Below are positions 1 to 64,000 of a stretch of DNA of 64,000 nt, piece by piece. Within the stretch, counting starts at the first letter, position 1, and each line of letters opens with the position of its first letter. Both the position numbers and the translations under genes were made by a program. This DNA is from Spironucleus salmonicida (Eukaryota). The stretch spans positions 631,797-695,796 of the forward strand of contig NC_090597.1 in the NCBI RefSeq assembly GCF_000497125.1, written 5' to 3'. The notes under the pieces are model-generated. The model was given only the letters and a program-made list of their open reading frames with translations, was not told the DNA's origin and searched no databases.

Positions 1-3000
1 AAGAGTACGTATTCTTGAATGTGACAGATATCAAATTTGGATACATTCCTCTATCCAGTATACAATAGATTGAATCTGTATCTCCATATAAAACCAATTC
101 TTTCAATTCATCGTTTATATGTCTCATTAATGTGTATAACAGTGTTCTTTATACGGATGTTATCGCTCCTGCGAATGATGCGTTTGATTAAGACCTTTAT
201 GTTTGTTGCAACTGTTCTTCATAATTAAATGTATTCTTAAATATATTTTATCCCACCAGTTAAACTGTGCAATCCTTGTGTAGCTCCTTATGGCACTGTT
301 CAAATATGAACTCTCCTTAATGAAATTATGTTGTGGGTCTTACCACGTTTTGACCTGTTTTACTATATATTGCATTTAATAACAGCTTATAGAACGATTT
401 ACCTCCAGGGTTTAACTTTATTGATCTATAATCCTACTATCCTTTCTGTTTTATATATGCTATGCCATTATCATACTTATAATCAAACTTACAATCATTT
501 GCTAATTGCTTTAGTACAGTTTCATCCTTATAACCATCTTGATCTGAGTGCAATGTCTTGTTGAACATCTATGAATTAATGTAATTATTTCCATCATATT
601 TCTTATCATTAAAACTTGTTATTTAGTACGTATGTATCTTGCATCTATCCCTGAACGTATAACCTTCGTATAAAGCATTTATCAATTCAATCTCATGCCA
701 AAACCCATAAAGATATCTTTATTCGAGGTTGTGCTTACATTTATAATGATTGTTAACATTTAAACATTGCTATTCTGCACATGTTCTACATAAAGGAAAT
801 ATCAACTTGTTACAAATATGACATCCTAACACTGGGAACTTTAAATCCCTTGGTGGTAACATCTAACATTTGATTTATATTACTCGTTACTTCTTATCAC
901 ATCCAGCTAAGTAGTATTGAAGTCTTTACTCTGCTGTAATCTTCCTTGGTATGCTCCTAACGTATTCAATTAAGTTATCAATATAGGCTTAATCAAGTTT
1001 AAACTTATGTTTTGCTATATCTTTTGAATCAATATTTTTAGTATATGTTGAGCTTTCTGCCTGTGTTCCAACAATTAAATCTCTTAAAGGTAAGTTTCCA
1101 AATACCATGCCTGAAGGGTAAAGCGATGTGAAGCCAATTCCGTACAGCTTTTCGTTTGGTCTATCTATTTCTCTACAATGAGTGTAGCATTCAGTTCTTA
1201 CTCCTGCTAATATCGATCTATTGCTTATGTTGTATTATGGAGGCATCTCTATCTTGATATCATTGTCTTATTCAAATTTAATAAACTCAACGTCTGTTAC
1301 ATGAAATATGTCCTCAAATGCTCCTTCATTCATTCTATCTTTTAAGCGTAAATCTTTTGTTTGATGTTGCCTCTTCCGTTCTTTCATTACTTTATAATAC
1401 TTATATGTTTGTCTTAATTCCTTAAACCTATGGTAGAACACTCCATTCAATTCTAAGCCAAACTTCTTAGTTATGCGATCTATTATACCATGGGATACTA
1501 TATCGATATTGTATTTTGTATCTAAGATCCTTTGATTTATAGTACCTTTGTTATCTTGGTAAAGTTGGTTCCTAAAAGTTTATTTAGCATTTCACTATTA
1601 TTCAAAGTTAGATATGATACGCGATACTCGTATTTCGATTTGTTATGTATTAGATCTTAATAACCTATTTATATCTTTATATTGCAGTGGTGTGTGAATA
1701 GGTTCATTGGCATTGCTGATGCTGTTAAATAGTTGAGGATGTTGACACCCTATTCCTTTAGTGATACTTCTACCCATTTCACAAGAGCTTTGCTTAAAAT
1801 GAGCTATCTTGAATACAATAATTAATATACTAATCAATGAAGTCTAAGTGATCATAGTCGTTAGCATATTAATTGAACTCATCCAAGCTTAACTTATCAA
1901 AATATTTGTGCTATAGAATGCCTTCTTTTACTAATTCACTTATTGATTTAAGACTCCCTCCGTTTTAAATATACAAATCAAATATCTCTTTTGTTAAGAA
2001 CGTGTATGACTATAGTTGTTTTCCAACTTCAAGTCCAAGGGCCAATTCCTTATTTAGTTTAGATAATGGTGAAGTTATGAGTCTAAACGAATCCTTAAAC
2101 GACATTCCATTTATTTTCAAATTCAATAGCTTGTTGTTTGTAATCAGTGTTTCGAATTCGAATTGCTCTTTCACTTTCATTATAGCTGCTAATAATAAGT
2201 ATTTGTCATATGCTGCTGCATTGTGTGCATAGAAGTCTTTTATCTTATATTTCTTAGCTATTGGTTCCATGTGCCTTATAAATTTGATTAGCAAATCGTC
2301 TGTTGAAGTCATGTAGCTGCCTGGTTCTTTTAATCTAAGTGCGTTATCATAAAAGTGATCCATCTCTTCGTATGGTTTTGTTTCCTTATCGTGTATGTTT
2401 ATAATCCATATTACTAAAAATGGGATGTGTTTCATTGAATAGTTTGAATAGTTATCATCATCTTCATTTAGATTATCGAATAGGCTTTCTATATCCCAAG
2501 TTAGAAATGATTTCTATTCATCATAAAGGTTTCCTTATTTGAAGTACTATCCTTCATATTCAATTTACGTTTTACATTTGCGTGATGAGTTGTGTGTCGT
2601 ATTACAATGACTGCATGGTGAAAACTTCTCGCATTGCTTTTAATGTCGTTCTAAGCATTTGCTATTGGGTGTGTTATGGAGCTATGTTCTACAGTTTTAA
2701 CATTAATAACTTTTGTTGTCTTTTGATCTTACATGACTGTAGTTGCAAAACGTACAATAATACTTAGTAGCCACTTCTTCTGCTTGTGTACATTCATAAC
2801 ATTGGTTCTTCTTATGGAATAGGTTTTGGTGTTGATAGCAATAAATATATTCCTTGTGCATTGGGTTTATTGTATTTATGCATTGCTTAAAATCCATTAT
2901 GACATTGTAATGTCCACTGCATAAAACTAATAAAAGCTCCATTTCTGAATTTGGATACAAGTCATTTACTTTATTAACTTCTGCTACTCTTATCTTTATA

Positions 3001-4409
3001 TTCAAATACCTTTCTGCTCTTATTAGTATCTCTGTATCTGCTAACTCCTCTGCATCTTTGTTGATTTCATTTATAAGCATATGCGTATAGTATTATAAGT
3101 ATTAGTTTCTAGCTTGAGTTTTGTCTAAGGGCTTATCTAAATACGTTTGTAAAGCCTTACCTGCATCAAATACTATTGTGGCCATTGCATATGGTTTTGC
3201 TCCTAACTAAAAGATATGTTTCTTATCAACTGTTTTTGATTTCTTGGTGAATGTTGCGATGATGGCCGCGTATAGACAGTTGTGGTCATTATTTTTGACA
3301 AAGAATATAGACCCTTTAAATTTTTACTCTAGTGTTGCGTTTCCTTAATACCGATGACCTACATTTCTACATATCAATCCTATTTAAGAACCTTCGTCAT
3401 ATTAACGATATACTTTTGATACATAAAACTCATCCTTCTCTTTACATACTTTTTATACTATTTATTCAGAAGAAATGACCTATACGTTTATGACACCAAT
3501 ATTTTAAAAAAGCATTACATCTGTATTTTTAACATCTCTATTAAAATACTTCTCTCCATTGTCCATTACTTCTTCAAATATTGATTCTAATAGACTTGAC
3601 ATCTAATTTTAAATTATGAATCCTATAGGAATGATGTTACCGTTTTATTTAATATATCTAATATTTGCAAACACATATGTGTCTTAATAATTACACTTGC
3701 CGTAATATAGACCCATATAAGGTGCATCCGTTATGATTTCAAAGGGAATCTTACTGTTAAAGTTATTTTAAAAGTCTTCAAAGGAGTTAATGTAATTTAA
3801 ATCTATCTGGTCTAATTTGAAATCCTTCCTTATGGTCTAAAGTGTGTTATCGTTTTCGTTAGTATATTTATCATAATTAATTTTGAATTCTTGTATTTGT
3901 GCTACACCTTGTAACTTTGATATCTTATCTAATTCATTATTAAGTTTATTTAACAGTCTAGGTTCTAATCCTTTTTGAATTCTTGTTTTAAGTTATGCTT
4001 TCATTTATTCATATTTAATACTCTAAACTCTTATTTAACTAACTCTTTCGGTGTACTCTCTTTATTTAATGAATTGGTTGTCGAATCTGTATGTATCGTT
4101 TTTAATCTTTTGTATATTGGCTTTCACTTTATTGTCTAAGATGTTTATGCAATCGTAAGGTCTTTCAAATTAATTATAATCTATCTTTTTGAAATTGCTT
4201 CTATATATTTGTTGTATTTATTTCTTTAGTTACTTAATTTGATCTTTTGATAAGTTATCCATATATATTTTTTTTAGTTTTGATTATAGCATTTAAAACC
4301 GTTTAATAATCTTTTTATATTTATCATTTTATGGCGACACAATAGCGCCAAGTCTATTTTATGCCGATTCTATTGTTTTGTTGAGAATCAAGTTATAGTT
4401 GATGCTCAT
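1..4409 (-). pseudogene. Protein-primed family B DNA polymerase (TP-OTU-ZnF-Exo-Vsr-Pol), copy 1, frameshifted; runs off the window
   Basis: With TAA/TAG=Gln the frame is open from ATG 4409 (MSINYNLILNK...) to TGA 1779 (876 aa). It contains NNDHNCLYAAI (~3261-3293), SGHY (~2907-2918), CxxC/H clusters, ExoI WDIES (2484-2498), ExoII YAHNAAAYD (~2205-2232) and ExoIII YCIQD (1806-1820). After 1-nt deletions at ~1804 and ~1540 come ELNGVFYH, GVRTE, motif A GFTSLYP (~1115-1135), PVLG...KLIFPLCRTCA, motif B KLLLNAIYSKTGQ (~350-390) and motif C YGDTDS (72-89). Confidence 0.9.
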
Positions 4410-4439
4410 TTGTTATAAGTTAAAAAAATGGTATCTTTT

Positions 4440-5017
4440 CTTTGGACATAATAATTTTGATATAGTTGTATCTTTCGATTTTCTTTATTTATTTTATAAT
4501 GTTCTCTATGCTTTGTGTGGCCGTTCCTTTATATTCTCTTCTTTGTTCTGGTCTTCCTAAATGCTTGGAATGTATTTGTTCTCTTTCTATAATTTCTTTT
4601 GTCTTGTTGATTTTCTGACTTAACTTTTGCAATTTTGAAAATGGGTTATACTACTTTCCGGGGTTTAGACTGGGTGCTTACTACTTTATTATTTTTAGAT
4701 TGCGTTATTTATTTCGTTTTATATAATATTCATATGTTTGAATGATCTTTCGAGTTCATTGTATTTATCCAAATTAATATTATTGGCATGTTATTGTGTT
4801 TTAATCGATTTGATTTATTTGATTATTATTTTACTATTTTAACTTGATCATTTGATAAATCATCTTTTGCTATTCTGTTTATTTTTAATTAAGAATTTCA
4901 AGTTGATGAGTTATAATTTATATTGATTTGATTTCAATTTGATAATTATGGGATTAAAAGATTTCTCTTTACGGTATTTATATTCTCTGTTAGGATCCTG
5001 TTGTAATTGAATGCCAT
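4440..5017 (-). pseudogene. Degenerate element ORF upstream of pPolB (hypothetical, K/N/Q-rich)
   Basis: ATG 5017 follows a T7 tract, as the pPolB start does. It begins MAFNYNRILTENINTVKRNL, resembling pPolB MSINYNLILNKTIESAQNRL. TGA after 27 codons; protein-like sequence continues in other frames. 3' end uncertain. Confidence 0.35.
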
Positions 5018-5441
5018 TTTTGTATATGTAAAAAAATATGTATTTCATAATGCATTTTTTTTGGGTTACATTCTTTCCCCTTTTTTTGATATATTTATTG
5101 GATTTGGGCGATGATGATAATTAATTAAAATTGACGTATAATTTTGGCCAAAAATTCGGCGCTGGGGCAACCCACCCGTCCCCAATCTCTAAAGACATCG
5201 CGGGTGTGTGCGGGTTGCTTGATCATGTATTAATTTTTATAGCAATGTGTTTTTTTTGAAAATTTCGATTTCCAAATATTGCAGAATTACCATGTTGGAT
5301 GGAACTCCCAACTACTGTTTTAATAATCTAAATGCTTTTATCATAAAATTTTAAGAAAAATAGTAGATTCGAAGAAACCTGGAGTAGTAAAACTACATAT
5401 AGTAATTTTTATTTTACTAGGTTTTAAATTTATTTGTTACA

Positions 5442-6317
5442 TCACTTCTTTGCTTTCCTTATGAAGTAATAAGCTAATCCACCACCAGCAGCACTTATTA
5501 CGGCCAAACCGCCTATTACTATACCAGTTATTGCACCACCACTTAATTTGTTGGCACCAGGAAGTATAGATTAAGATATACATAGTTCACCAAATTTTTC
5601 ATAGCCTTTAGCACAGTCTGTGCATTTATCATCACTAGCCTTGACATATCCAGCTAGACATAAATCGCATCCAGAGTTCTCTGTGTTACAGGTAGCACAT
5701 CCCTATTAATTACTACATGCACATTCCGAAGTCGCATCGGCAGCACAATCCGTGGCAACACCATCAAGACAATATTTATCCTAAGTAAGACCATTACACT
5801 ATTTAGTGCATTTCCCTTCGATAGTTAAGACATTATTCATACTACTTGGTTCGCATGTGGCGCAAAATTCAGAAGATATGCACAGTGAGCAGTTCAGGGC
5901 ACAAGGCTTGCAATACTTAACAGATAAGTCGCAGTATCCTATACCCTTATCTGAACATTATTTATTAGTTGAACACGTATTTTCACATTTATTGGTACTT
6001 TTATTCAATATCTTCCCTTTATTGCAAGAAGTACATTTATCTTCAGTAGATTCGCAAGTTTAACAGTCAACAGAGCATGATTCACATTTTCCAGTATTAT
6101 CTAAAAATTATTCTTCGGTACACTTAGTACATTTTTCATCTGCACACAACTAACATCCATTTGAAGCAGTGTTATCAATGCAATTACAACTATGCGCACC
6201 TGACGTAGAAATCTAAGTGCATGGTTTGCAATCGGCCTCAGTTTCGGTCGTGGCTGGGCAAAAAGTATTAGCTAAACATTTATTACTAGTTACTGTACAC
6301 TTTCCTGAATTTATCAT
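5442..6317 (-). CDS. Cysteine-rich membrane protein (CRMP1-like), 291 aa
   Basis: [21 protein letters not shown]..., CXXC repeats, [30 protein letters not shown], tail IRKAKK*. 876 nt, in frame with TAA/TAG=Gln; stop lies in AGTGA. Confidence 0.9.
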
Positions 6318-6687
6318 TTAAAAAAAATGATTTCACAATATAAGTTAAACAGTTGTTAGTATATTTTTAGTTTATCTATATATACATTAAAGTAATATAT
6401 AATTTATGTTATATTATCATAAAAACAAAAAATACTATTATTTTCGAGTAATAATGGTTAATTTAAAAACTCTGTAACTTATTGCTACTAAATATTATTT
6501 AATATAAGCTATATTTTAGAATGTCTAAAATATTTTTATAATTAAAATGGCAAATAAGTATATTTAATACGTAGTTATATTCACTTTTTTTAATTTCATA
6601 ATTCTAATTTTAACATTTTTATATTTATTGAATATTTATATACTATAACCGTATTGAATTTAACTAAAAAACTATTAATAATAAATA

Positions 6688-7554
6688 TCATTTCCTAACC
6701 GTCCTAATGAAATAGTAAGTCATCCATCCACCAACTACCACTAAAGCACTGATAACTATGCCGGCGATCGTACCGCCCCCTAGTTTGTTGCTAGATTCGC
6801 TGGTAGTAGGTTTGATGCATTGACCAGCAAAATGAACATGACCTTCTGCGCAGTATGTGCATTTTCTTTCGGACCCATCGCAAAAGTTTTTAGGTAAGTG
6901 ACACACCCAGTTTTATCGGCACTATAAAGTTGCACATCCCAATTAACTGCTATATGAACATTCCGAAGTCGCATCGGCAGCACAATCTGTGGCAACACCA
7001 TCAAGACAATATTCACTAGCTTGAATATTATTACATTATTTAGGGCATTTTCCATCGATAGTTAGAACATTGTTGTTATCAGTTGTTCTGCATACGATGC
7101 AAAATTCAGCAGATATGCACATTGAGCAGTTAGGGGCGCAAGGCTTGCAATGTTTGGCACATAGGTCGCAATACCAAAGATTACACTTTGAGTAATCTTT
7201 TAACTCAGAACCTGATGTTTAACAATTCTCAGCACTTATATGGAAAACAAAACCCTCTTTGTAGGAGGTATATTGTTTTGCTGCAGAGTAGCAGGTAGCG
7301 CAATTTCCATCAGATACTAAAAATTTTGGATCAGAAGTTAAGAGATTTCCATCTAAGCATTTGGAACATTTATCCGCAGTAGATAATGCACAAGTTGATG
7401 TTGGTGCATCTACTGCACAATTACAGCCTTGACCGGAAGATATTTTACCGCCTTCGCATGCAATGCAATCTACTACTTCTGTACCGGTAGCTGGGCAGTA
7501 AGTGTTAGCAATGTATTTATTTTCACTATTTGTGTATTCCCCAGCAAAAATCAT
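6688..7554 (-). CDS. Cysteine-rich membrane protein, 288 aa, eroding paralogue of the 5442-6317 gene
   Basis: Continuous frame from ATG 7554 to TGA 6688 with TAA/TAG=Gln. CXXC motifs, several Cys lost, a short compensated frameshift at ~6885-6930, TM GGGTIAGIVISALVVVGG, tail IRTVRK*. Confidence 0.75.
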
Positions 7555-7609
7555 TTTTGAAACAAAGTTGTTTTTAATGTTCTATATTTTCGTAGACAGT
7601 GTTACTTTT

Positions 7610-8450
7610 GTTAAAATTAACTTCTAAGTGTATGGTATTTACTTGGATGATCTAACTCAAAATTATCATAAACAGATTTGTTGTACATTGGACAATATAG
7701 AAGCGATATTAAACTTTTACTTATACCTTGTCATATTTACTACCGTAAATTTTTTTATATAGATATACTTAAATTTGGTATTTTATATATGTACTGAATA
7801 AAGCATATTGTACTATAGTATTATTCCAAATATTGCTGGAGACTTATTAACACCAATCCGACCAATTGATTTAAGCTTCCATGGTTGAAAAATAATTATA
7901 ACTTGCGAGCAGAAGCCTGAATGCAAATAAAGGTGTTAATGCGGTTCTGTACGGATGTAAATAATCCACAATAATAATATTAACAACGTTTTCTGATATT
8001 AAGCACCAAACTAATTATTGATTATACTTTTTTGGTAACCTAAGTAGGAGAAAGATTATTAAATATGGTACAAATAAAATAAATATATACAATAAAGTTA
8101 TTATCATTTATTTTTTTGCCAATACTTTAGTTGAATCATTATCAGCTAGCTAGATATTGTAGTTGTAGAGCGTTGGATATTGGAGATTTTAAATTGATCG
8201 TTGCTTTTTCTTGACAATGAACATATAAACCAGAAAACCGACAGTTACACCAACCGTGAGTAACACGCCTATAACTATACTAATATATATCCAATCATCA
8301 TCTAGTGATCTGTACATGGCAAGTACCATATGTAGGGGAATCATTATTTTACATTTAGCGATAACCCTGCAGAAGTAAGTCACCATCAAAATAGAGTAAA
8401 AGATCATTTATGGTTTCAAAAAACACATCGGAATTTCATTATTCTTATCC
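7610..8450 (+). repeat. ~0.8 kb direct repeat of 48000-48830
   Basis: Near-identical core 7700-8050 vs 48090-48440 (e.g. cttgtcatatttactaccgtaaatttttttatatagatatacttaaatttgg). It also carries the small TM ORF. Confidence 0.9.
8189..8407 (-). CDS. Small putative single-pass membrane protein (mini-CRMP-like); true stop lies further downstream
   Basis: Hydrophobic N-terminus, 2 Cys, TM ISIVIGVLLTVGVTVGFLVYMFIV followed by KKKQ. Paralogues at 48526-48795 (-) and ~19956-20200 (+). TAA at 8189 is Gln in this code, so the 3' end is undefined. Confidence 0.4.
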   Translation of the reverse strand: MIFYSILMVTYFCRVIAKCKIMIPLHMVLAMYRSLDDDWIYISIVIGVLLTVGVTVGFLVYMFIVKKKQRSI

Positions 8451-10169
8451 GCAAATATGAAATACGGACACCCTATCGAAAAGCTATAAACACAGTTTTA
8501 TTCTTCTTGGTTGGTGACTTCCTACTAAATGATTTATAAAAACTAAATAGAAACAATTTATTTTAGGAGAGCTAAACTTCATTGTGTATACGATAATGTT
8601 GACTTAAAATAATACTTCCATGGGCAGTCTATATTATCTAAATAACAGGATTGTATCATGATAGTATAATGGTAAGAGGAATAATTTATCAGTTGATTAA
8701 CAGTGCATGTTCTACGTCTTGTTGAGCGAAGCATTAGTCGTACCTTAATAGGTATCTGAATCTGCAAGGTGATCCTTCTATAGATAACTAGCTATTCAAA
8801 ATCACATTAAATACTAGAATAGAATATTAATATAATATAGTTAATACGATTTAACATATCTAGATTATCTACACCTGTCGTAAAGTAAGACATTGCACTG
8901 CAATTAACCTTAATCATTACAAGTTATTATAATATTACTTTACTCAATATTCTTGCCAATTTAATATATTTTTAAGACAATCAAGTATGTCTCAAAAGTA
9001 ACAATTAATATTGCAGCAAAATCTCTACAATCTGAAAATATACAATTTACCATTCCTAAATTGTACTGCAAACTATACAACATGATTTTATCAGACATTC
9101 TTCTTGTCTCATGGCATTTGCACTAAATTTGATTTAACCAGTATAGCCCACAAAGATATGGTGAGACTTGCAACGAAAATATCATAACGGCAAATCACTG
9201 TGAAAGTTCCAAATTGTGCAAGTTTGATCAGATCGGATATATTACAATTTTAGAGTTCGTCTTCTTGTAATTAGTAGAATATGGTATCTGATTATTGGGA
9301 ATTTAGAGATATAGTTAAATGGATAATAAGTTAGTATTGTGATAGTTAAAATGCGATAAACGAGTTTTCTAGAAATATAAAATTTAATCAGGTGGCGCTA
9401 TACGTAATTTTAGAATATTATAGTATAATATATCTTAATATGGAGATTGCGAATAATTAATTCAATTATTATTAGCATAGTAGTATTTTATTTCTAGGAT
9501 TATTAAATATACTCACATATATGTTCCGAGTATATTAATATCGCAGAAACGAAATATGGTTAATAAAAATATAAGCTGGTCAAGCCGCATGGACAGGTAC
9601 CTTGCGGAACGGCAAAAGTTTCATATAGTAATACATCTATATCTATATAAATGCTTGATAATAAGATATCATTTTGTATTAGGTAAGCGAAAGCAAATTT
9701 AACTTGAGCGAAGTCTGTTGGACATTATTTTTTATCATCGTTGCTGGTGGTTGTATCCGTATGCTGAATCTATTTCTGTGTTAAATTTGTTAGTAAGACC
9801 TTGCTAACCCTATTTACTTACAAGACATCAAGAGTTATTGGTAAACTTCGTAAGATATGCAATAAACGGCATATAATGTATATTTATTAAATAGTTCGAG
9901 TTAGGTATTTTTAATACTTGCATAATATATTAACTTATAAAAACAACCAGTAAAATTTTAACAATAACTTTTGTATTAATGTGTTAATAATAATATACTT
10001 GAAATTTGCATTTCACAAATAATTATGCTTTGTATATTTATCTATAATTAAATTCACTTTGTGATAATATAAGTATAATGTAAATTATTTAAGTATTGTT
10101 AAAAACTAGAAACTGCTATCAAATAATACAACATAATTAATAGAATATATGAAATTAAATCTTTATAAA

Positions 10170-12338
10170 ATGGAAGTAGATCCAGGAACCTGTAAGTAAG
10201 ATAGTAGCAAGTGCGCAGAAGGATATTTTTGCACATACCGTGCTTAAGAATAGAACTTAATAGAAATGGCTTGCGCTAAGTGTAAAGATGGATGCGTGAC
10301 CTGTGCAGGTTTAAACGCAAATGTCCAACACTGTACGAGCTGCAAAGAGAGAGAATACCTATCTCACGATAACTATTGCCGCGAATGTCATGCGGATTGC
10401 GAGTAATGTACTGGTCCTGAGCAAACATGTGATGGATGCAAAGATGGCTTCTAGGACACTCTTGGAGTATGCGAAGTTTGCCCAGGCAATGAGGAGCAAG
10501 AAGATGATTGCGTATGCGGTACATCGAAACACTGTTTAGATTGCAATGAAAAAGACATGAAAAAATGTGCAAGCTGCCAAGAGGGGTACGATATAAATAG
10601 CTCAACACCATGCAAAGACTGCCTTCCAGGATACGTTTCAATAGCTATTAAGGATGAAAATATCTGTGTTGAGTGTGATAATACCTGCAGAGAGTGCTCA
10701 GGCACAAAGACCACGTGCACGGCCTGTAACGATGGCTTTATTTTAAGTGGTACGACCTGCACTCCTTGCGAGGCTGGTAAAACCGAGTCCTGCCCGTGTG
10801 GAAAGTCCCTCAATTGTACGACATGTAACCGTAATAATACTAATGCTTGCGCAACTTGCAAGGAACATTACGATAAGACTGCAAGCCCACCCTGCTCTAA
10901 GTGCGAACCTAAATATTTTGAGTTAGAAATTAAGGATGGAAAGGAGTGCACCCTTTGCAGAAACTCATGTGAAACGTGCATGGACGCAAGCAAATGCCTG
11001 ACATGTAAAAATGGCAGTTACTTAAAAGATGATAAGTGCGAACTTTGTTATGGTGCCTAGAAGATCTCCTGCACGTGCGGGACTGCCAAGAATTGCGGGA
11101 CCTGCGATACTAATAAACAGACGGCATGCCTAACATGCATGCACGGTTTCGACTCAAGTAAAGTAGGTGCGTGCGATACCTGCAGCGAGGGATTCTTCAA
11201 GAAGGTTTCTAAGGACAATTTCACATGCGAACCTTGTACTACCGCTAACTGCGCTCAGTGCTCTGAGAAGAAGGAGGAATGTACAAAATGTGTGTATAAT
11301 ATGTATTTAAATGAGTAAAAACAGTGTCAGCAGTGTGCCAAAGGAGATGGGATTCCATGTGACTGCGGTGCCGTCGTTAACTGCGATACTTGCTCAACAA
11401 TTTAGTCATCAAAATGCGGAGAGTGCTTCCCTGGCTACGTAATTGACAAGAATGGTTCCTGCACTCTCTGCGCGCTGAATTATGTCAAGATTGGTGATAA
11501 GTGCGTTAAGTGTGGTGTGGACAACTGCCAAACCTGCTCGGCAGACGCGAAAACGTGCGAAAAGTGCAGAAATAATTTCATTCCCAAAGATGGGAAATGC
11601 GAACCCTGCAGCGAGAACGGCCCACAGTGCCTCTGCGGAACCACGGTGAACTGCAGTACCTGTAAGCTTAGTGATACAATGAAGTGCAAAAGCTGCGTTG
11701 AGGGCTATCAGATTGATAGCAAAGAAACATGCACGAATTGCGCGCTGAATTACGTTAAGATTGGTGATAACTGCGTTAAGTGCTAAGTAGAGAACTGCGC
11801 CACCTGTATGCCGAACGGCACGATGAAATGCCAAACCTGCTTGAAAGGCTATCAGATTGATAACACAGGAACCTGCACGAACTGCGCGGTGGGCTATGAA
11901 AAGAAGAACGGAAAGTGCGAATTCAACTGCTAGTTGGCGGTGAAAGACGGGGAATTTTGCTAGAACGGCTAAGTTATCAAGTGTGGTACAGCTGGATAGA
12001 TTGTCGAGTGCACGTGTGGAAATGTTCACAACTGCAAGAACTGCTAGGGGAGCGTTTGCTCCAGCTGCATGACTGGCTATCTTTTGGCCAGCAGTGCCTG
12101 CAATGACTGCGACAAGGGATATGAGCTACAGGACAAAACATGTGTAAAAAGTGCTGAGAACTAGAGTGGGATGCCTATCAGCACGATAGCCGGTATTGTT
12201 GGTGGAATATTGGTCGTAATCGGCGTTGTAAGCGTCGGGTTAGCTGTTTACTTGAAGAAGCAGAAAAAGCAGAAGAAATTTAATAGCATACCGACCTCTG
12301 ACAACAATGTTGAGCCACTTAGTAACGTACTTTGGTGA
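10170..12338 (+). CDS. Cysteine-rich membrane protein, 722 aa, long cytoplasmic tail
   Basis: MEVDPGTCKQDSSKCAEGYFC...; track ORFs 10557 and 11517 are in the same frame. TM IAGIVGGILVVIGVVSVGLAVYL, tail KKQKKQKKFNSIPTSDNNVEPLSNVLW*. Internal repeat CALNYVKIGDxCVKC at ~11469 and ~11739. Confidence 0.92.
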
Positions 12339-15283: not shown

Positions 15284-16210
15284 TTTAAAATAAATGAAAT
15301 AGTTAGCTTTATATGTATAATTATTATCGATAGTGAATATGAGTGTTGTTTCTATCTATTTTTACGTTATACTTAGTTATATGTTTATATGAATATATTT
15401 TAAATTGAAAAATCAGATATTAACAAAAATCTACTTTACTTATAGTACTCCTAACAATGGGCACTAAAAACAAATTTTATGTTTTTTCTCTTTGCTATTA
15501 ATAATCGGTGTCTAATTTAGATTCGTGTAACAACTTTGCCAGTTTTGCAAATAGATAATTGCTCAATCTGATAATATACATATATAATTAGTAACTTCAA
15601 ATTTTATAATACTAATACTAATATTGAATATTTTAAGTATATAACAATACAACGAAAAATGGATAAATCACGATACCTAATTGTAAATAGTATTAGATTT
15701 ACCACCATTTGCACAGAATCTATGCTTCTGCCCTAAAGTATCAAATCTATAATTTAGGATATTTCCAGTACTTGCTACCAATGTATCCCTAGCGCACTAT
15801 CATTATCTCACTAGATTTCACTATCATCCATTCATAGAAACTGGATAAATTGCAAATTGCAGTTTTTATTATTTTACGTTATGATACGTTATACTGAAGA
15901 ATACATTACGCTACAATTAAGATTTTGGGATTCAAAATTTTTAATATATGCTGAATCTATTTATTCTATAACCTAAAATAAGTAGATCTATAAGGTTTCA
16001 AAGAGGGTATTACTTAAAAAATTACTATTACAAAACCTAGTTAGAAAATTTCAGATTACAATCAATTACATATTATAATAAATTTTCACTTCTTTCCTTT
16101 CTTGATGAAGTAATACGCAATACCGCCACCGACAGCTCCTACTACTACCAACACAGCAATCACAATTCCAGCCACCGCGCCGCCTGAGAGGTTCCCAGAT
16201 TCCTTTCTGG
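14620..16210 (-). repeat. ~1.6 kb inverted repeat, arm 1 (partner ~29300-30890)
   Basis: Track ORFs 14645-14830 and 14914-15132 have identical twins at 30684-30869 and 30382-30600 on the opposite strand (coordinate sum 45514). The intergenic DNA and the KKGKK gene ends also match. Confidence 0.95.
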
Positions 16211-18245
16211 GGGCGAAACAGTAGTCTCCAATTTTTACAGCCCCATCTTCGCAATTTTTACATTCATCAGCCTCTAGCTTGTATCCCGACAGACAGGAGC
16301 CGCACTTAGTCTTACTAGCATTACATGTGAGACAGTTCTTCGCACCTGAACACTTGCACTCCGTTATCTGCCCTTCACTTCCACAAGCAGCACTTTCAGT
16401 ACCGATGCAGGCGTTTCCATCTTCCAGTACTGTAGAACAGTTCTTCTCGCACGTATACTTAATGCTCATTGTGTGCTAATTGGCACATGTATCGCACTTA
16501 TCGAGGCTTTTAGAGCATGTTGCGCAGTTTGACTCACATTTTGTGCAGACCATTTTTATCATTAGATAGCCGTCGGAGCAGACGGAACAGCTGTCATCGT
16601 CAGCTTTTTAATAGCCAATAATGCAGTGTCCGCACTTTGGCTAATCAGAAGTATCGCAGGTAGCGCAGTTAACTGCTTCCCCGCACGTGCACTTTTCCGT
16701 TTTCTTTCCATCACAAGCAGTACAGATGCCTTCTTTTGCTAAAAAGCCGTCCTTACAAACTTTACAAATATTTTTGTCATCAGCGCAGTTCGCGCAGCCG
16801 CTTTGGCACGCCAAACATTATTAGTTCTCCAAGCCAAAGCCAGCTTTGCAGGTCGTGCATTTTTCAATAGTACCCTCGCATGTGGCGCAGTTTCCAGTGC
16901 AGTCTTTGCATATAATGTCGCAGATTTGGTTCGTTGTGCAGTTGCCGTCAGTTTTTGTGCATTTCTTCTCGCATTTGTCGTTTTATACCGAAAATCCATC
17001 GTTACACGCCGTGCAAATGGAGCTTGAAGAGCAGGTTGTGCAGTTCACAGAGCAGGCGGTGCAAGTATCAGTGCCCGAAGTGGTATCCTTGAAAAATCCT
17101 GCCACGCAATTCTCGCAAGGAGTGGTGATAGAGGGGTCAAAATTGGTAATACACGTTTTGCATTTGCTTGTGTCATTATCGCACGTTGAGCAGTTTTTGG
17201 CAGTCTAGCACGTGCAAGCAGTTGCTTAGTTTATCGTACAGGCTACACACTGCTTGTTTATAATAGAAAATCCATCATCGCAAGCGGTACAAATAGAGTT
17301 TGAAGAGCAGACTGTGCAGTTAGCAGAGCATGCAGTACATTTTCTGATATTTGCTGAAGTATCCTCGAAGAATTTGTCCTTGCATTTCGCACAAGGGATG
17401 GGTCCAGAGGGGTCAAAATTGTGGATGCACGTTTTGCATTTGCTCATATCATTATTACAAGTAGAACAATTTAAGGCGGTTGAGCACGTGCAGGCAGCCA
17501 TTTAGCTTTATGTGCAGGCAATACAATTGCCGTTTACACTACTAAATCCGTCATTGCAATCTTCACATGTGCCAAAGGTGTTAAATTTCATATTAGGTAA
17601 ACACGTTTCACACTTGGCGCCGGTGGTATTACAAGAAGCACAATATTGTGCATTACCACATTTACATTATGACGTTAGGCCTATAACGCAAGACTTTGCA
17701 ACACCGTCTTCACAGTACTATCCGTTTTGAATATTTTCACATGTCTCAGTACATTATCCGTCTATTGTAGTGATATATCCGTCAGGGTCGCAGAAATCGC
17801 AAGTTGTGGTTGAAGTGCAAGACGCGCAATTCTCAATGCACTATTAAACCAGTAATATCGGTAGATTACCGAAATCATCTCCGACGGGCATACAGTCATC
17901 TTCTTTTTTACAGAATAATTCACAAAGACCAGTCTATGGGTTCTTTTCGTAGCCTTCGGAGCACGTAATGCAAGAATTGGCGTTTGCACAGGTATCGCAG
18001 TATAAAGGACAATTTATGCATTTGTTATTTTATAAAAATGTCGTAAGCACGCATTTAGAGCACTTATTGTCTTCACATTCTTGGCAGTTGTATATGGGTT
18101 TGCTGTCTTCGCAGTAACAACTTTAGCCATATATCATATCTTCAGAGCATGACAGACAATTTACGGCAGTTGAACTATTTGTAGGGCAGTAGTTTCCAGC
18201 CTTGCAGTTGAAGACGGCATTTGAGCATGTACCCGTGTCTGTCAT
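16086..18245 (-). CDS. Cysteine-rich membrane protein (CRMP1-like), 719 aa
   Basis: [21 protein letters not shown]...; track ORFs 17226-17501 and 16086-16469 are in the same frame. 2160 nt; [30 protein letters not shown], tail IKKGKK*, AGTGA at the stop. Confidence 0.92.
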
Positions 18246-50477: not shown

Positions 50478-52139
50478 ATGATAGAAGCTGGAACATGCTC
50501 TGAAGATATAGTATATGGCTAAAGTTGTTACTGCGAAGACAGCAAACCCATATACAACTGCCAAGAATGTGCGGGCAAGCAGTGCTCTACATGCGTGCGT
50601 AATACATTTTTATCAAATAATAAATGTATCGACTGTCCTTCAAACTGCGATACCTGTGCAGATAACAATTCTTGCATTACGTGCTCCGAAGGCTACGAAA
50701 AGAACCCAAATACCGGCATTTGTGAGTTATCCTGTAAAAAAGAAGATGACTGTATGCCCGTCGGGGAAGATTTCGGTAATCCGGCTACATAAATGTCTAT
50801 ATCTTGCATTCCGAATTGCTTGGTATGTTATTCAACCACAACTTGCACGTTCTGCAATCCTAGTGGGTTTATCAGTACACTAACAGGGCAATGCACTAGG
50901 GAATGCGTAGGTATTCAAAACGGAAATTACTGTGACAACGGTATTGCAAAGCCTTGCGATGAAAATCTGACGTCAGAATGCATATGTGGCAATGCGTCAT
51001 TTTGTGTTTCTTGTAATACCGCTGGTAACTAGTGCAAAAAGTGTTTGCCGCATATGAAATTTAGCAAAAATGGCATATGTGGTGGCTGCGAGGACGGATT
51101 TGCTCTAGAAATTAAATAATGCATACCCTGCACAGATGAAAACTGCAAGATTTGCCCATCTAAAAAAAATACCTGTACATCTTGCAAAAATAACTTTTCG
51201 GTGTAAAACGGCAAATGCGAAAAACACTGCCAAGTGAGAACCAGTACCTGCGCTATAAACCAAATCTGCGACACGATCTGCAAAGACTGTATAAACAACT
51301 GCGCCACGTGCAAGGACGCAGTCGACAAGTGCTTGACGTGTGAATCTGGCTTTATGTTGGAAGGCGATAAATGCGTCACGTGCCCAAACGGCTGCGCGAA
51401 CTGCGACGGTGATAAAAATAATTGTAAAATTTGCAACGATGGTTTTTTCGTCAAAGATAGAGCCTGCACTACGTGTGATGGAAACACGACCGAAAAGTGC
51501 AAGTGCGGGAATGCAGTAAATTGTGCTACCTGCGATTCTTCTGATATAGGAAACTGCGGAAACTGCATCACCAGCTACAAAAAGGCATCCGATGAAACGT
51601 GCTCCACCTGCGTTGATGGCTATTTGATGGTCGGAATGGTCTGCAAGAAATGTGAGTAAACGTGCGCCACGTGCTCATAAAGCATCGAAAAATGCACCAG
51701 CTGCATCGATTCGCACACCATGAGCATCAATTAGACGTGCGAGAAAAATTGCACGGGTGAACTTGAGGATGGAAAGGCGTGCAATGACGAGAAGACTGTG
51801 GATTGTGGTGGAAATGATCAGATAACTGCGTGCAAATGTGAAGATACTGCAAACTGCTTTAAATGTGATAGTTCGGATAATAAAAAATGTGAATCCTGTA
51901 TGACAGGCTACAAATTTGTAAATTAACAGTGCGACAGCTGCATGGATGTGTACACTGCTGTTGGTACTTTCTGCGTCTTATAGAGCTAGACTCCCGGCGC
52001 CAACCTCTCTGGTGGCACAATTGCAGGCATTGTCATCGCAGTTCTGGTCGTTGTGGGAGGAGCCGGTGTAATTTTTTGGTACATTAAAAAGTCCAAGGTT
52101 AATTAGGAGATTGAGATGCCGAAGTCTAACATTAAGTGA
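50478..52139 (+). CDS. Cysteine-rich membrane protein, 553 aa, paralogue of 16086-18245
   Basis: [24 protein letters not shown]...; track ORFs 50595, 50793 and 51234 are all in frame. 1662 nt; [29 protein letters not shown], tail KKSKVNQEIEMPKSNIK*, AGTGA. Confidence 0.92.
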
Positions 52140-59971: not shown

Positions 59972-60265
59972 TCAATTTTATTAATACAAAAAAAATACTT
60001 GGATAATTTCTCATAACAGAATAGTTTTAGTACTAAACGCCCTAGTGTTGATCTCTTCCGATGAATCATATATTCTTTCATTAATACTAATAAATCTTAT
60101 GCGTTTAAGTTATCTCTCGCCACGATATCTGCTATATATTTTAAATCTGCTCTCAAGATCTTATGCTCATCGTTATAGAATTATATATTATTTTTTATAT
60201 TACTTAACCAAAAGTTAACTTTCCCATTTTACTATATTAAATAAATATAACTCTGGAAATATCAA

Positions 60266-63200
60266 TCATTCTTTTACATAGCCAAATGATAATGTAGCTA
60301 TTTCATTCGGTGTTGAATTAAAATCAATACATCGTTTCTATGAGTCCATTTTGATCGATTTATATGTTGTGTTTGTATATATGCTACAATCCTTCTAATC
60401 TCTTATGAAGTTTATTTCTTGCTTTACTTTTACTTATACCATCTGATCGTTGGGTATTATGCATTACTATTTTTATCTATATTGATCTTATCAAATAACA
60501 CGTTCATGTATACTTCAAATAAATGCTTTTATGATTGATCTTCCAATGTCATGATTCCTTACTTGTCAACTGTGATACCCTTTGATGTATGAGCGTATTT
60601 GATTCCGTCTGTATACGCATATACTTATTCCCCTAGACATACCCATAACTCTGGGTCCAGCTTCTATTCGTATTAGCAAGAGTACGTATTCTTGAATGTG
60701 ACAGATATCAAGTTTGGATACATTCCTCTATCCAGTATACAATAGATTGAATCTGTATCTCCATATAAAACCAATTCTTTCAATTCATCGTTTATATATC
60801 TCATTAATGTGTATAACAGTGTTCTTTATACGGATATTATCGCTCCTGCGAATGATACGTTTGATTAAGATCTTTATGTTTGTTGCAACTGTTCTTCATA
60901 ATTAAATGTATTCTTAAATATATTTTATCCCACCAGTTAAACTGTGCAATCATTGTGTAGCTCCTTATCGCACTGTTCAAATATTAACTCTCATTAATGA
61001 AATTATGTTGTGGGTCTTACCACGTTTTGACCTGTTTTACTATATATTGCATTTAATAACAGCTTATAGAACGATTTACCTCCAGGGTTTAACTTTATTG
61101 ATCTATAATCCTACTATCCTTTCTGTTTTATATATGCTATGCCATTATCATACTTATAATCAAACTTACAATCATTTGCTAATTGCTTTAGTACAGCTTC
61201 ATCTTTATAACCATCTTGATCTGAGTGCAATATCTTGTTGAACAACTATGAATTAATGTAAGTGTTTCCTTCATATTTCTTATCATTAAAACTTGTTATT
61301 TAGTACGTATGTATCTTGCATATCTCCCTGAACGTATAACCTTCGTATAAAGCATTTATCAATTCAATCTCATGCCAAAACCCATAAAGATATCTTTATT
61401 CGAGGTTGTGCTTACATTTATCATGATTGTTAACATTCAAACATTGCTATTCTGCACATGTTCTACATAAGGTAAACAATAACTTGTTCCAAATATGACA
61501 TCATAACACTGGGAACTTTAAATTCCTTGGTGGTAACATCTAATATTTGATTTAAATTACTCTATACTTCTTATCGCATCTAGCTAAATAGTATTGACGC
61601 CTTTCTTCTGCTGTAATCTTCCTTGGTATGCTCTTAATGTATTCAATTAAGTTATCAATATAGGCCTAATGAAGTTTAAACTTATGCTTTGCTATATCTT
61701 TTGAATCAATACTTTTAGTATAGGTTTAGCTTCCTGCATGTGTTCCAACAATTAAATCTCTTAAAGGTAAGTTTCCAAATACCATGCCTGAAGGGTAAAG
61801 CGATGTGAAGCCAATTCCGTACAGCTTTTCGTTTGGTATATCGATTTCTCTACAATGAGTGTAGCATTCAGTTCTTACTCCTGCTAATATCAATCTATTG
61901 CTTATGTTGTATTATGGAGGCATCTCTATCTTGATATCGGTGTCCTATTCAAATTTAATAAACTCAACGTCTGTTACATGAAAGATGTCTTCAAATGAGT
62001 CTTCATTTATTTTATCTTTTAAGTGTAATCCTTTCGTTTGATGCTGTCTCTTCCTTTCTTGCATTACTTTATAATACTTATATGTTTGCTTTAATTCCTT
62101 TAACCCATGATAGAACACTCCATCCAATTCTAATCCATACATCTTAGTTACTCCCTCCGTTTCATCATGGAATACTATGTCAATATTGTATCTTGTATCT
62201 AAGAACCTTTGATTGTATAGTATATTTGTTATCTTGGTAAAGTTGGTTCCTAAAAGTTTATTTATCATTCCACTGTCATTCAAAGTTAGATGTGCTAAGC
62301 GATACTCGCATTTCGATTTGCTATGTTTTAGATCTTAATAACCTATTTATATTTTTATATTGCAGTGGTGTGTGAATAGGTTCATTGGCATTGATGGTGC
62401 TGTTAAATAGTTGAGGATGTTGACACTCTATTCCTTTAGTGATACCTCTACCCATTTCACTAGAGCTTTGCTTAAAATGAGCTATCTTGAATACAATAAT
62501 TAATATACTAATCAATGAAGTCTAAGTGATCATAGTCGTTAGCATATTAATTGAACTCATCCAAGCTTAACTTATCAAAGTGTTTCTGTTATAGAATGCC
62601 TTCTTTTACTAATTCACTTATTGATTTAAGACTCCCTCCGTTTTAAATATACAAATCAAATATATCTTTTGTTAAAAACGTGTATGACTATAGTTGTTTT
62701 CGAACTTCAAGTCCAAGGGCCAATTCCTTATTTAGTTTAGATAATGGTGAAGTTATGAGTCTAAACGAATCCTTAAACGACATTCCATTTATTTTCAAAT
62801 TCAATAGCTTGTTGTTTGTAATCAGTGTTTCGAATTCGAATTGCTCTTTTACTTTCATTATAACTGCTAATAATAAGTAGTTGTCATATCCTGATGCATT
62901 GTGTGCATAGAAGTCTTTTATCTTATATTTCTTAGCTATTAGTTCCATGTGCCTTATAAATTTGATTAGCAAATCGTCTGTTGAAGTGATGCAGTTGCCT
63001 GATTCTTTTAATCTAAGTTCGTTACCATAAAAGTGATCCATCTCTTCATATGTGTTTGTTTCCTTATCGTGTATGTTTATAATCCATATTACTAAAAATG
63101 GGATGTGTTTCATTGAATACTTTGAATAGTTATCATCATCTTCATTTAGATTCTCGAATAGGCTTTCTATATCCTGAGTTAGAAATGATTTCTATTCATC

Positions 63201-64000
63201 ATAAAGGTTTCCTTGTTTGAAATACTATCCTTCATATTCAATTTACGTTTTACATTTGCGTGATGAGTTGTGTGTCGTATTACAATGACTGCATGGTGAA
63301 AACTTCTCGCATTTCTTTTAATGTCGTTCTAAGCATTTGCTATTGGGTGTGTTATGGAGCTATATTTTACAGTTTTAACATTAATAACTTTTGTTGTCTT
63401 TTGATCTTACATGACTGTAGTTGCAAAACGTACAATAATACTTAGTAGCCACTTCTTCTGCTTGTGTACATTCATAACATTGGTTCTTCTTATGGAAGAG
63501 GTTTTGGTGTTGATAGCAATAAATATATTCCTTGTGCATTGGGTTTATTGTATTTATGCATTGCTTAAAATCCATTATGACATTGTAATGTCCACTGCAT
63601 AAAACTAATAAAAGCTCCATTTCTGAATTTGGATACAAGTCATTTACTTTATTAACTTCTGCTACTCTTATCTTTATATTCAAATATCATTCTGCTCTTA
63701 TTAGTATCTCTATATCTGCTAACTCCTCTGCATGTTTGTTGATTTCATTTATACGCATATGCGTAAAGTAGTATAAGTATTAGTTTCTAGCTTTAGTTTT
63801 GTCTAAGGGCTTATCTAAATACGTTTGTAAAGCCTTACCTGCATCAAATGCTATTGTGGCCATTGTATATGGTCTCGCTCCTAACTAAAAGATATGTTTC
63901 TTATCAACTGTTTTTGATTTCTTGATGAATTCTGCAATGATGGCCGCATATAGACAGTTGTGGTCATTATTTTTGACAAAGAATATAGACCCTTTAAATT
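60266..64000 (-). pseudogene. Protein-primed family B DNA polymerase, copy 2 (OTU to C-terminus), multiply disrupted
   Basis: Same motifs as copy 1 plus the C-terminal SKGIT and KRCID...TLSFGYVKE* (TGA 60266). Vsr-like DIVF...LELDGVFYHG intact. TGA stops at 63687, 61501 and 60991; frameshifts at ~62482 and ~60470. Confidence 0.9.

Follow-up and report, generated by a model that had tools for sequence, protein, structure and literature searches.

A probable pseudogene of a Polinton-type protein-primed DNA polymerase with a predicted OTU-like protease domain in Spironucleus salmonicida

The protein-primed family B DNA polymerases (pPolBs) of Polintons have a published layout in which a terminal protein (TP) is followed by a viral OTU-like protease domain (vOTU), an exonuclease and the palm (Krupovic et al., 2024, PMC11071308; Starrett et al., 2021, PMC8502044), as the initial annotation of the present locus had correctly stated. 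PRD1-like terminal proteins are alpha/beta, that of phi29 is helical and elongated, and the domain before the vOTU in Polinton-type pPolBs is alpha/beta and bears no relation to the phi29 protein (PMC11071308). Viral OTUs serve both as deubiquitinases and in self-cleavage, the latter being offered as a hypothesis (PMC11071308), and for the Polinton class it has been proposed that self-cleavage by the vOTU releases the priming protein (PMC11071308, section 9). The self-processing polyprotein suggested in the initial annotation coincides with this proposal and is not new. In adenovirids the vOTU is inactivated and the TP is separate (PMC11071308).

The window analyzed here is a stretch of 64,000 nucleotides of S. 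salmonicida DNA with a pPolB half-gene, copy 1, at its left end. Such genes form at least three subfamilies in the host genome (G000) and have a relative in Hexamita inflata; their existing annotation is throughout that of a hypothetical or transmembrane protein. With the protein frame read in genetic code 6 (TAA and TAG as Gln), a minus-strand frame extends from 4733 to 1779 over 984 codons without a stop; TGA occurs once in the 985 codons of the pPolB frame and 11–33 times in each of the other five frames. The features, all on the minus strand, are the following.

4685..5020, minus: broken piece of a second pPolB N-terminus, a paralogue, directly upstream, recognized by sequence comparison; source of the ATG at 4733
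3798..4409, minus: N-terminal helical extension, residues 109 to about 312, K/I/N/Q-rich, with predicted long helices
3354..3797, minus: alpha/beta region, residues about 313–460, candidate terminal-protein (D1) domain from the strand and helix order in the model
2886..3341, minus: vOTU-like cysteine protease domain, residues about 465–616, predicted from the fold search
3276..3287, minus: Asp483-x-x-Cys486, at the start of the predicted catalytic helix
2904..2912, minus: His608-x-Asn610, opening a strand that follows a hairpin in the model
2574..2840, minus: Cys/His cluster with 12 Cys, residues 632–720, between vOTU and exonuclease, recognized by conservation
1779..2513, minus: 3'-5' exonuclease domain with ExoI WDIES, ExoII AHNAAAYD and ExoIII YCIQD, recognized by motifs and homology
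1..1830, minus: rest of the polymerase, split over two more frames (about 1830–1540 and 1537–2), leaving the window, motif A without its Asp
60262..64000, minus: pPolB copy 2, 95% identical DNA, with a TGA in the vOTU, the break after ExoIII and further breaks
5442..6317, minus: host gene for a cysteine-rich membrane protein, duplicated along with the polymerase remnant

The start codon is likely to be Met109 at 4409 on the minus strand, since the upstream paralogous fragment and one database relative open with similar sequence. The minus-strand ATG at 4733 was rejected as a start because it belongs to the upstream fragment (85% identical in DNA to G000:C2:1101078-1101482) and because residues 17–108 are decayed in other copies, with many indels. 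From Met109 a single frame is open through Cys486, His608 and the twelve cysteines into the exonuclease. The initial annotation had placed its Cys and His correctly (Cys486 at 3278–3276 and His608 at 2912–2910, 122 residues apart), and the order that it gave for the part after the His, CYQH, CYEC, CTFC, CQNC and CSHC followed by ExoI WDIES, is the one found. Its helical, K/Q/N-rich stretch in front of VKNND has the claimed length, the distance from Met109 being 370 residues, but is helical and K/Q/N-rich in about the first 200 of these only; residues 331–478 abound in I, V, Y, G, and F, with a predicted alpha/beta structure.

The prediction that residues 465–616 adopt an OTU protease fold is supported by fold searches with the model. 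In a wide search of 48,161 chains with the predicted model as query, the best 20 matches were all of the OTU family (Z 5.1–6.8, model residues 146–297), and in a second search so were 50 of the 50 matches listed (best Z 7.2, rmsd 4.1, 139 aligned). As the model is weak (mean pLDDT 46) and the best Z stays below 8, the weight of this evidence rests on the unanimity of the OTU matches; Foldseek with the OTU model gave no match at E 0.001 or better. A model without an OTU fold had been named in advance as the outcome that would speak against the protease, and the fold search returned OTUs instead. The predicted catalytic helix begins at model residue 166, Cys486 being model residue 167, and Asp483, Cys486, His608, and Asn610 are each present in all eight rows of an alignment (A1) of three family-1 sequences, three family-2 sequences, Hexamita P0005 and polinton P0010. 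With this make-up, about four independent lineages stand behind the conserved catalytic residues, which are unchanged even in P0010 at 17% identity. His608 and Asn610 are in register with His265/Asp267 of OTUB1 (2zfy) and His151/Asp153 of the CCHFV protease (3pt2), assuming that the last 6–7 positions are gapless; this register was derived from where the structural alignments end, and does not hold for yeast Otu1 (3c0r), for which the alignment extends further. Together, fold search and catalytic-residue conservation bear out the earlier reading of DxxC...HY as an OTU-like protease. G000 yielded a single canonical host OTU; on it the OTU-slice profile scored 2.3 bits, under the best of 2,000 shuffles, and a global alignment that puts Cys on Cys and His on His had a probability of 5%.

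In the window pPolB the vOTU sits between the N-terminal domain and the exonuclease. The exonuclease is 28% identical to that of P0010 (272 columns, E 9e-18) and the palm 27% identical to the P0010 palm (E 5e-19); P0010 itself matches PF03175 at E 4e-52 and has the same zinc cluster, and the family-2 palm matches phrog_1907, DNA polymerase, at 7e-6. Pfam gave no family for P0001 or the palm frame, and Pfam searches with separate domains gave nothing of note, with no OTU or pPolB match for the window proteins; PHROGs gave zero matches for four window pieces, and sequence searches of solved structures gave matches at chance level only. Homologues were few (1 match among 3,901 candidates, P0010 alone among 1,740 candidates, none among 1,325 very long proteins, an ill-suited length range, 9 in a representative library, and none in viral contigs or in a phage collection) and the alignments are therefore shallow, with 8 and 16 rows.

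Family 2 and Hexamita P0005 retain all 12 cysteines of the cluster and polinton P0010 retains 11 of the 12, against 15–24 of 89 other residues. The putative zinc-finger cluster reported before ExoI is thereby supported. The cysteines probably form three or four zinc sites, and the cluster was most likely a nucleic-acid binder or a brace between protease and exonuclease. The literature matches listed contain no description of a 12-Cys cluster in a pPolB, which the supplements of Krupovic et al. may show; a conserved zinc cluster between protease and exonuclease was thus not found described, and appears to be of modest novelty.

The 5' half-gene of the window is very probably a pseudogene of a Polinton-type protein-primed family B DNA polymerase, derived from an ancestor that was already dead and drifting since. 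The frame of copy 1 stops at a TGA (1781–1779) just after ExoIII and is broken a second time near 1540. The break after ExoIII is shared by 5/5 family-1 copies and is found in none of three family-2 copies and not in the family-3 copy; the Asp of palm motif A is missing in all four family-1 palms examined and present in all three family-2 palms. Copy 1 had been described as intact, which holds for the N-terminal module but not for the whole gene, with its stop after ExoIII, its palm in two further frames and its motif A without Asp; it does not qualify as a functional gene, which would need a single reading frame and undamaged palm motifs A, B, and C. Residues 109–640 are broken in each of the four sister copies (copy 2 has a TGA at codon 575, within the vOTU), and copy 1 alone of the five reads without interruption from Met109 up to the stop that follows ExoIII. 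The catalytic Cys is missing in one of the three family-2 copies, and Asp483 in the C5 copy. The copies are segmental duplicates carrying host genes: the duplicated block is at least 14 kb long, host genes included, similarity between copies continues into host genes, and the gene at 5442..6317, with 12 CxxC motifs and a hydrophobic C-terminal segment, lies inside the block. Very probably the five family-1 copies descend from a gene that was dead from the outset, with the frame broken after ExoIII and the motif A Asp lost, which then multiplied within host segmental duplications and has drifted since; the first 876 codons of copy 1 are still stop-free by happenstance.

The private changes of copy 1 look neutral and amount to 24 replacement and 6 silent ones (omega about 0.95, p 0.53, residues 109–984). 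In a neutral simulation at 2.8% per site both catalytic residues survived in 86%, and residues 109–640 were TGA-free in 49%. The catalytic dyad called intact in copy 1 does retain both residues, as expected by chance, but lends no support to present function, as every copy found is broken and purifying selection is not seen in copy 1. For some copies pairwise omega is below 1 (0.62, 0.70, 0.55), and among the private changes of the C5 copy silent ones are in excess (36/16, p 0.031); part of the divergence therefore accumulated under selection. As only the best candidates were scored in the genome searches, an intact copy may have been overlooked. One study has contigs, from four of its runs and RNA by guess only, that span the part from vOTU through zinc cluster to exonuclease. 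The four long contigs share the three-base gap of the C5 copy, and two short contigs, 161 and 218 bases long and each with one difference, are compatible with copy 1 or its near-identical sister; nothing is concluded from these contigs.

Could copy 1 have been exapted, so that a palm-less product of 876 residues (TP, vOTU, zinc cluster, exonuclease) is expressed and kept as a host protease, deubiquitinase or self-cleaving protein, i.e., as a domesticated Polinton vOTU? The unique open frame, the presence of the triad and all 12 Cys, and the single canonical host OTU would fit such a role, and with just 2 private changes in residues 479–740 there is room for selection acting only on the protease and the zinc cluster. 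This is nevertheless quite improbable given the omega of the private changes, the likelihood that a frame stays open by chance under a one-stop code, and the zinc region of the sister copies, which is equally little changed (1.7–4.2%) although these copies are broken. That the gene is still active, with programmed frameshifting after ExoIII yielding a full polymerase, is scarcely credible and already largely refuted: the break site is identical in all family-1 copies, as such a mechanism would have it, but families 2 and 3 read through there, copy 1 has its second break, and the loss of the motif A Asp from family 1 speaks against activity. It is also highly improbable that the Cys and His motifs resemble an OTU by chance and that the CxxC clusters stem from neighboring host cysteine-rich genes. 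Profile matches are absent and the locus is flanked by CxxC-rich host genes, yet the top structural matches are all OTUs and the Cys pattern aligns residue for residue with the Hexamita and polinton polymerases.

Within the favored reading of a dead Polinton-type polymerase, the alpha/beta stretch immediately before the OTU is the probable terminal protein. The order of strands and helices in this region agrees, in a low-confidence model, with the PRD1-like TP topology in PMC11071308. The model of residues 109–482 has a mean pLDDT of 47, and the matches listed for it are dominated by a helical hairpin (model residues 1–76); LF/PAD and terminal-protein matches are absent from this list, which the hairpin crowds, and this is no evidence against a TP. 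Candidates for the linking Ser or Tyr, expected near a Gly or Pro in the loop ahead of the final TP strand, are Tyr445, present in 6/8 rows of A1 and with a Gly three residues further (Hexamita has Pro and Ser at this place), and Tyr437, present in 8/8. Ser449, found in copy 1 only, was rejected as linking residue because the four sister copies all have Tyr at that position. The putative terminal protein had originally been sought in the helical region, and a helical TP like that of phi29 is unlikely here. Long helices are indeed predicted for residues 109–300 (pLDDT 29–59) and the phi29 protein is helical and elongated; but PRD1-like TPs and the pre-vOTU domain of Polinton-type pPolBs are alpha/beta, an alpha/beta region with conserved tyrosines occupies exactly that place here, and the fold search with the helical part found nothing but generic helical-hairpin matches. 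The helical extension (109 to about 312), 27% identical paralogous pieces of which lie at other places in G000, is probably not the priming core. With the alpha/beta region taken as TP, the domain order would be helical extension, terminal protein, vOTU protease, zinc cluster, exonuclease and palm, in the TAA/TAG=Gln code of the host. A Tyr or Ser of the alpha/beta domain most likely served the polyprotein of the ancestral virus as the priming site for DNA synthesis, and cleavage by the vOTU (Cys486-His608-Asn610) most likely fell between this domain and the vOTU itself, leaving the primer on the DNA end. It is doubtful that the ancestral vOTU was mainly a deubiquitinase of host proteins, the TP being freed by another protease or never. 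Otubains and other deubiquitinases are its best structural matches and viral OTUs are known in both jobs, with self-cleavage a hypothesis, whereas the position of the vOTU is fixed between TP and exonuclease and it is inactivated in adenovirids, where the TP is separate (PMC11071308); the two roles are moreover compatible with each other.

Integrase PF00665 had no match in G000, with the control positive in 7 of 14 genomes, and a decayed or divergent gene would escape this search; double jelly-roll capsid PF21738 had none either, with the control positive in 0 of 14. The C5 copy and two of three family-2 copies, but not the window copies, are followed by a frame that we take, from its motifs, to be ATPase-like; no Pfam or PHROG ATPase family matched it. 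There are no long inverted repeats in positions 1–12000 of the window, and the 3' end of copy 1 lies beyond it. No paper on polintons in Spironucleus or Hexamita was among the literature matches listed. These pPolB elements represent a very divergent Polinton-type lineage in diplomonads, a finding of modest novelty.

Since self-cleavage by the polinton vOTU has so far the status of a hypothesis, every copy whose triad is intact can serve as assay material, and elements with whole genes would be better material than fossil copies; a fossil pPolB is an extra data point and brings no new mechanism. In fold the domain resembles OTUB1/2, yeast Otu1/Otu2, OTUD1-3 and the CCHFV vOTU (Z 5–7.2, rmsd 3–4.5 angstroms over 90–145 residues), and the predicted order of the Cys-His-Asn/Asp triad is that of cellular and nairoviral OTU deubiquitinases, from which it differs in identity (8–21%) and in being set in a polymerase polyprotein. 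The polinton-like elements of Trichomonas and Streblomastix (Bellas et al., 2023, PMC10120064) are likewise integrated small DNA viruses of metamonads, and those of Streblomastix share TAA/TAG=Gln; they are defined by capsid genes, and the main text of that paper does not mention diplomonads, S. salmonicida appearing in Table S1 (assemblies). Alpha-type adintovirus PolB (Starrett et al., 2021, PMC8502044) shares an N-terminal OTU-like domain fused to a PF03175-type polymerase, and P0010, the nearest full-length relative found, is of this make (OTU plus PF03175); adintoviruses are however animal elements that carry genes for integrase, capsid, and adenain, and no such gene was found beside the present copies. 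The closest likeness is to the Polinton/Maverick pPolB (Krupovic, Kuhn, Fischer, and Koonin, 2024, PMC11071308/PMC11161782), with the vOTU directly before the exonuclease, the palm behind, the vOTU Cys at a helix start, its His on a later strand, and an alpha/beta region in front. The window gene differs in being a very divergent pseudogene (no Pfam match) in table 6, with about 200 additional helical residues at the front and a 12-Cys cluster that the main text of that paper, with 0 occurrences of "zinc", does not mention, though its supplement may differ; diplomonads are also absent from this main text. The comparison extends the TP-vOTU-exonuclease-palm layout to a very divergent diplomonad lineage, and brings to attention the conserved 12-Cys cluster between its protease and exonuclease.

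The window spans G000:C2:631797-695796, G000 being the genome. With translation table 11 its copy 1 region yields short frames only. When TAA and TAG are read as glutamine (table 6), a minus-strand frame of 984 codons runs from an ATG at 4733, from which residues are numbered here, to the TGA at 1781-1779; TGA is found once in its 985 codons and 11-33 times in each of the other five frames. Near-identical database proteins come from the diplomonad Spironucleus salmonicida, where they are annotated as hypothetical. The locus is flanked by cysteine-rich membrane protein genes (8-45 CxxC each), which in the window are embedded in duplicated sequence, a mixture of direct and inverted copies.

3278-3276, minus strand: Cys486 in the translated copy 1 frame
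2912-2910, minus strand: His608 in the same frame
5442-6317: host cysteine-rich membrane protein gene
6688-7554: host cysteine-rich membrane protein gene
10149-12338: host cysteine-rich membrane protein gene
16086-18245: host cysteine-rich membrane protein gene
50478-52139: host cysteine-rich membrane protein gene

The order of Cys486, His608, five cysteine motifs and ExoI described in the initial annotation is reproduced by the table 6 translation. The same annotation placed about 370 helical K/Q/N-rich residues ahead of the cysteine motif, which holds for about 200 of them and not for residues 331-478, a stretch with abundant I, V, Y, G and F for which alpha/beta structure is predicted. The ATG at 4733 was rejected as the start since it sits within a paralogous fragment, the beginning of which is similar to the sequence at 4409; Met109 (4409) is therefore the likely start. 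This fragment (4685-5020, minus strand) is a broken second N-terminus of a protein-primed family B DNA polymerase (pPolB), directly upstream of copy 1, and has a longer version at L041:7634-8483 elsewhere in the genome. A short GC-rich stretch that follows it (5150-5220) may be an element end.

Copy 1 belongs to a subfamily (family 1) with five near-complete copies and one 5' piece in the genome, at 86-95% DNA identity to copy 1; family 2 has three copies (36-38% protein identity), family 3 has one, and 14 short exonuclease fragments are found mostly close to contig ends, all these counts being lower bounds. A representative library search gave nine matches, including P0005 from Hexamita inflata (29%) and P0010, a 1,270-residue polinton polymerase that matches PF03175 at E 4e-52. 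Asp483, Cys486, His608 and Asn610 are invariant in an eight-row protein alignment of these two proteins with three rows each from families 1 and 2. P0005 (CAL6028943.1; 767 residues) has the same triad and zinc cluster and likewise ends inside the exonuclease domain.

Residues 465-616 very probably form an OTU-type protease, as judged from a predicted structure. In an AlphaFold2 model of residues 320-745 (mean pLDDT 46, rising to about 60-75 near the Cys helix and His hairpin) a helix begins at the cysteine and a strand at the histidine. No Foldseek match reached E 0.001; all of the first eight PDB rows, although short of that value, were OTUs, and the first viral row was an OTU-domain protein (E 0.008). 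A fold search against 48,161 representative chains gave OTU family members in all of the best 20 rows (Z 5.1-6.8, over residues 465-616), and in a second search all 50 among the rows listed were OTUs (best Z 7.2, all below 8). The OTU assignment of the initial annotation is supported by unanimous top rows and by catalytic residues that do not vary in the alignment. If the last few positions are gap-free, the alignment end points put His608/Asn610 over the OTUB1 residues His265/Asp267 and over His151/Asp153 in the OTU of CCHFV (catalytic residues from the consulted parts of PMC10803509 and PMC6357015); the same arithmetic fails with yeast Otu1. Weighing against the OTU reading, profile searches matched no Pfam family, and a sequence profile of the OTU region failed to single out the OTU encoded by the host. 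PF02338 located a single canonical OTU gene of the host, at L061:838-1842 (G000:C6:1586941-1587945).

The 12 cysteines of residues 632-720 are kept far better (12 in family 2, 12 in P0005, 11 in P0010) than the other residues (24/89, 22/89 and 15/89, respectively), so that the predicted zinc cluster is an inherited polymerase part and not one taken from host CxxC proteins. Its presence in P0010 suggests that many polintons probably have it. The palm region (about 840-740, minus strand) contains a second Cys/His cluster, which P0010 shares.

The helical region had been proposed as the terminal protein (TP), a role that more probably belongs to the alpha/beta region. The polinton TP, according to the sections of PMC11071308 consulted, is unrelated to the helical phi29 TP, consists of a four- or five-stranded sheet and two helices directly before the vOTU, and has its linking Ser or Tyr close to Gly or Pro. 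A model of residues 109-482 (mean pLDDT 47, about 55-73 across residues 310-405) has helices up to about 305, beyond which strands alternate with helices in a succession compatible with that description; Tyr437 is present in 8/8 alignment rows and Tyr445 in 6/8, yet the matches listed by fold searches with this model were generic helical hairpins. By position and analogy the TP is thus probably residues ~313-460, and the helical part ahead of it is most likely an extension of the copy 1 protein.

The description of copy 1 as intact applies to its 5' half; in the remainder a stop follows just after ExoIII, the rest of the polymerase is split over two further frames, and palm motif A is without its Asp, as in 4/4 family-1 palms examined. 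The break after ExoIII is found in 5/5 family-1 copies, in 0/3 family-2 copies and not in the family-3 copy; families 2 and 3 carry breaks of their own. Similarity between copies continues into host genes for 14 kb or more, so the copies arose by segmental duplication of a dead element rather than by new insertion. That copy 1 was instead domesticated as a palm-less protease is highly improbable. All four sister copies are broken inside residues 109-640, and the catalytic Cys is lost in one family-2 copy and Asp483 in the C5 copy. Compared pairwise with copy 1, the C2 copies have omega values of 0.88, 0.62 and 0.94, the C5 copy 0.70 and the C6 piece 0.55. Of the single-base changes found in copy 1 alone, 24 are replacement and 6 silent (omega ~0.95), and in a neutral simulation (2.8% per site, without indels) residues 109-640 stayed stop-free in 49% of runs and both catalytic residues were retained in 86%. 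Against the dead-element reading count an excess of silent private changes in the C5 copy (p 0.031) and the presence of just two private changes within residues 479-740 of copy 1, so that this part alone may be under selection.

Downstream of the C5 copy and of two family-2 copies lie an ATPase-like frame, which we take to be such from its motifs, and two further frames, none of which follows the window copies. Since, in addition, an integrase profile (control weak) and a capsid profile (control silent) gave no matches, copy 1 is classed as a Polinton-type pPolB gene and a complete Polinton is not claimed. The ATPase-like gene has 46 matches in the genome, many close to contig ends, for example:

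C6:14505-15231, ATPase-like match
C8:14535-15261, ATPase-like match
C4:13988-14642, ATPase-like match
C1:1888589-1889315, ATPase-like match
C2:27289-28016, ATPase-like match

With many of these matches and most of the 14 exonuclease fragments lying close to contig ends, it seems that the virus family has left remnants which now belong to the subtelomeric repeats. The two frames after the ATPase are L041:4599-5063 and L041:5067-5738 (+), the latter with 27 matches in the genome and no matching Pfam or PHROG family. The C5 copy (L014-L015, G000:C5:963600-971000) is a mosaic with a family-1 N-terminus and exonuclease, a palm end 86% identical to family 2 and then the ATPase module. Two family-2 copies (L036/L039, G000:C6:1040000-1070900) are arranged as an inverted duplication spanning 7.8 kb or more (98.8% identity). 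Inverted repeats of 1.9 kb (L040:3602-5465 and L041:5770-7633, 99% identical) lie on either side of the family-2 element located at C2:1.09 Mb, and may represent its long terminal repeats or else a transposon of separate origin; they include sequence related to an element of 160 bases, bounded by 24-base inverted ends (L009:270-429), that disrupts the palm in the C2:902k copy. Another viral insert, distinct from these and AT-rich (L057-L058, G000:C4:935000-950900), has an ATPase 29% identical to the polymerase-linked one and, presumably, judging by motifs, a primase-helicase-like frame and superfamily 2 helicase pieces.

Beyond the layout, predicted fold, conservation and decay established for the copy 1 gene, the published model suggests that the polyprotein would prime through a Tyr or Ser located in the alpha/beta domain, with the vOTU cleaving between this domain and itself. 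Self-cleavage is put forward as a hypothesis in the consulted part of PMC11071308, with support from how large the terminal protein of pGKL1 is; the vOTU may alternatively have deubiquitinated host proteins, which is compatible with self-cleavage. Neither main text of the two Krupovic et al. papers mentions the zinc cluster, and literature searches did not bring it up. The literature search gave no report of such elements in diplomonads, nor did term look-ups in PMC11787283, PMC13215967, bioRxiv 10.64898/2026.10.13.758929 and the main text of PMC10120064, of which Table S1 lists Spironucleus salmonicida. The layout of copy 1 itself is that already published by Krupovic et al. (2024), and its OTU part, in the portion of the article consulted, by Starrett et al. 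(2021; PMC8502044).
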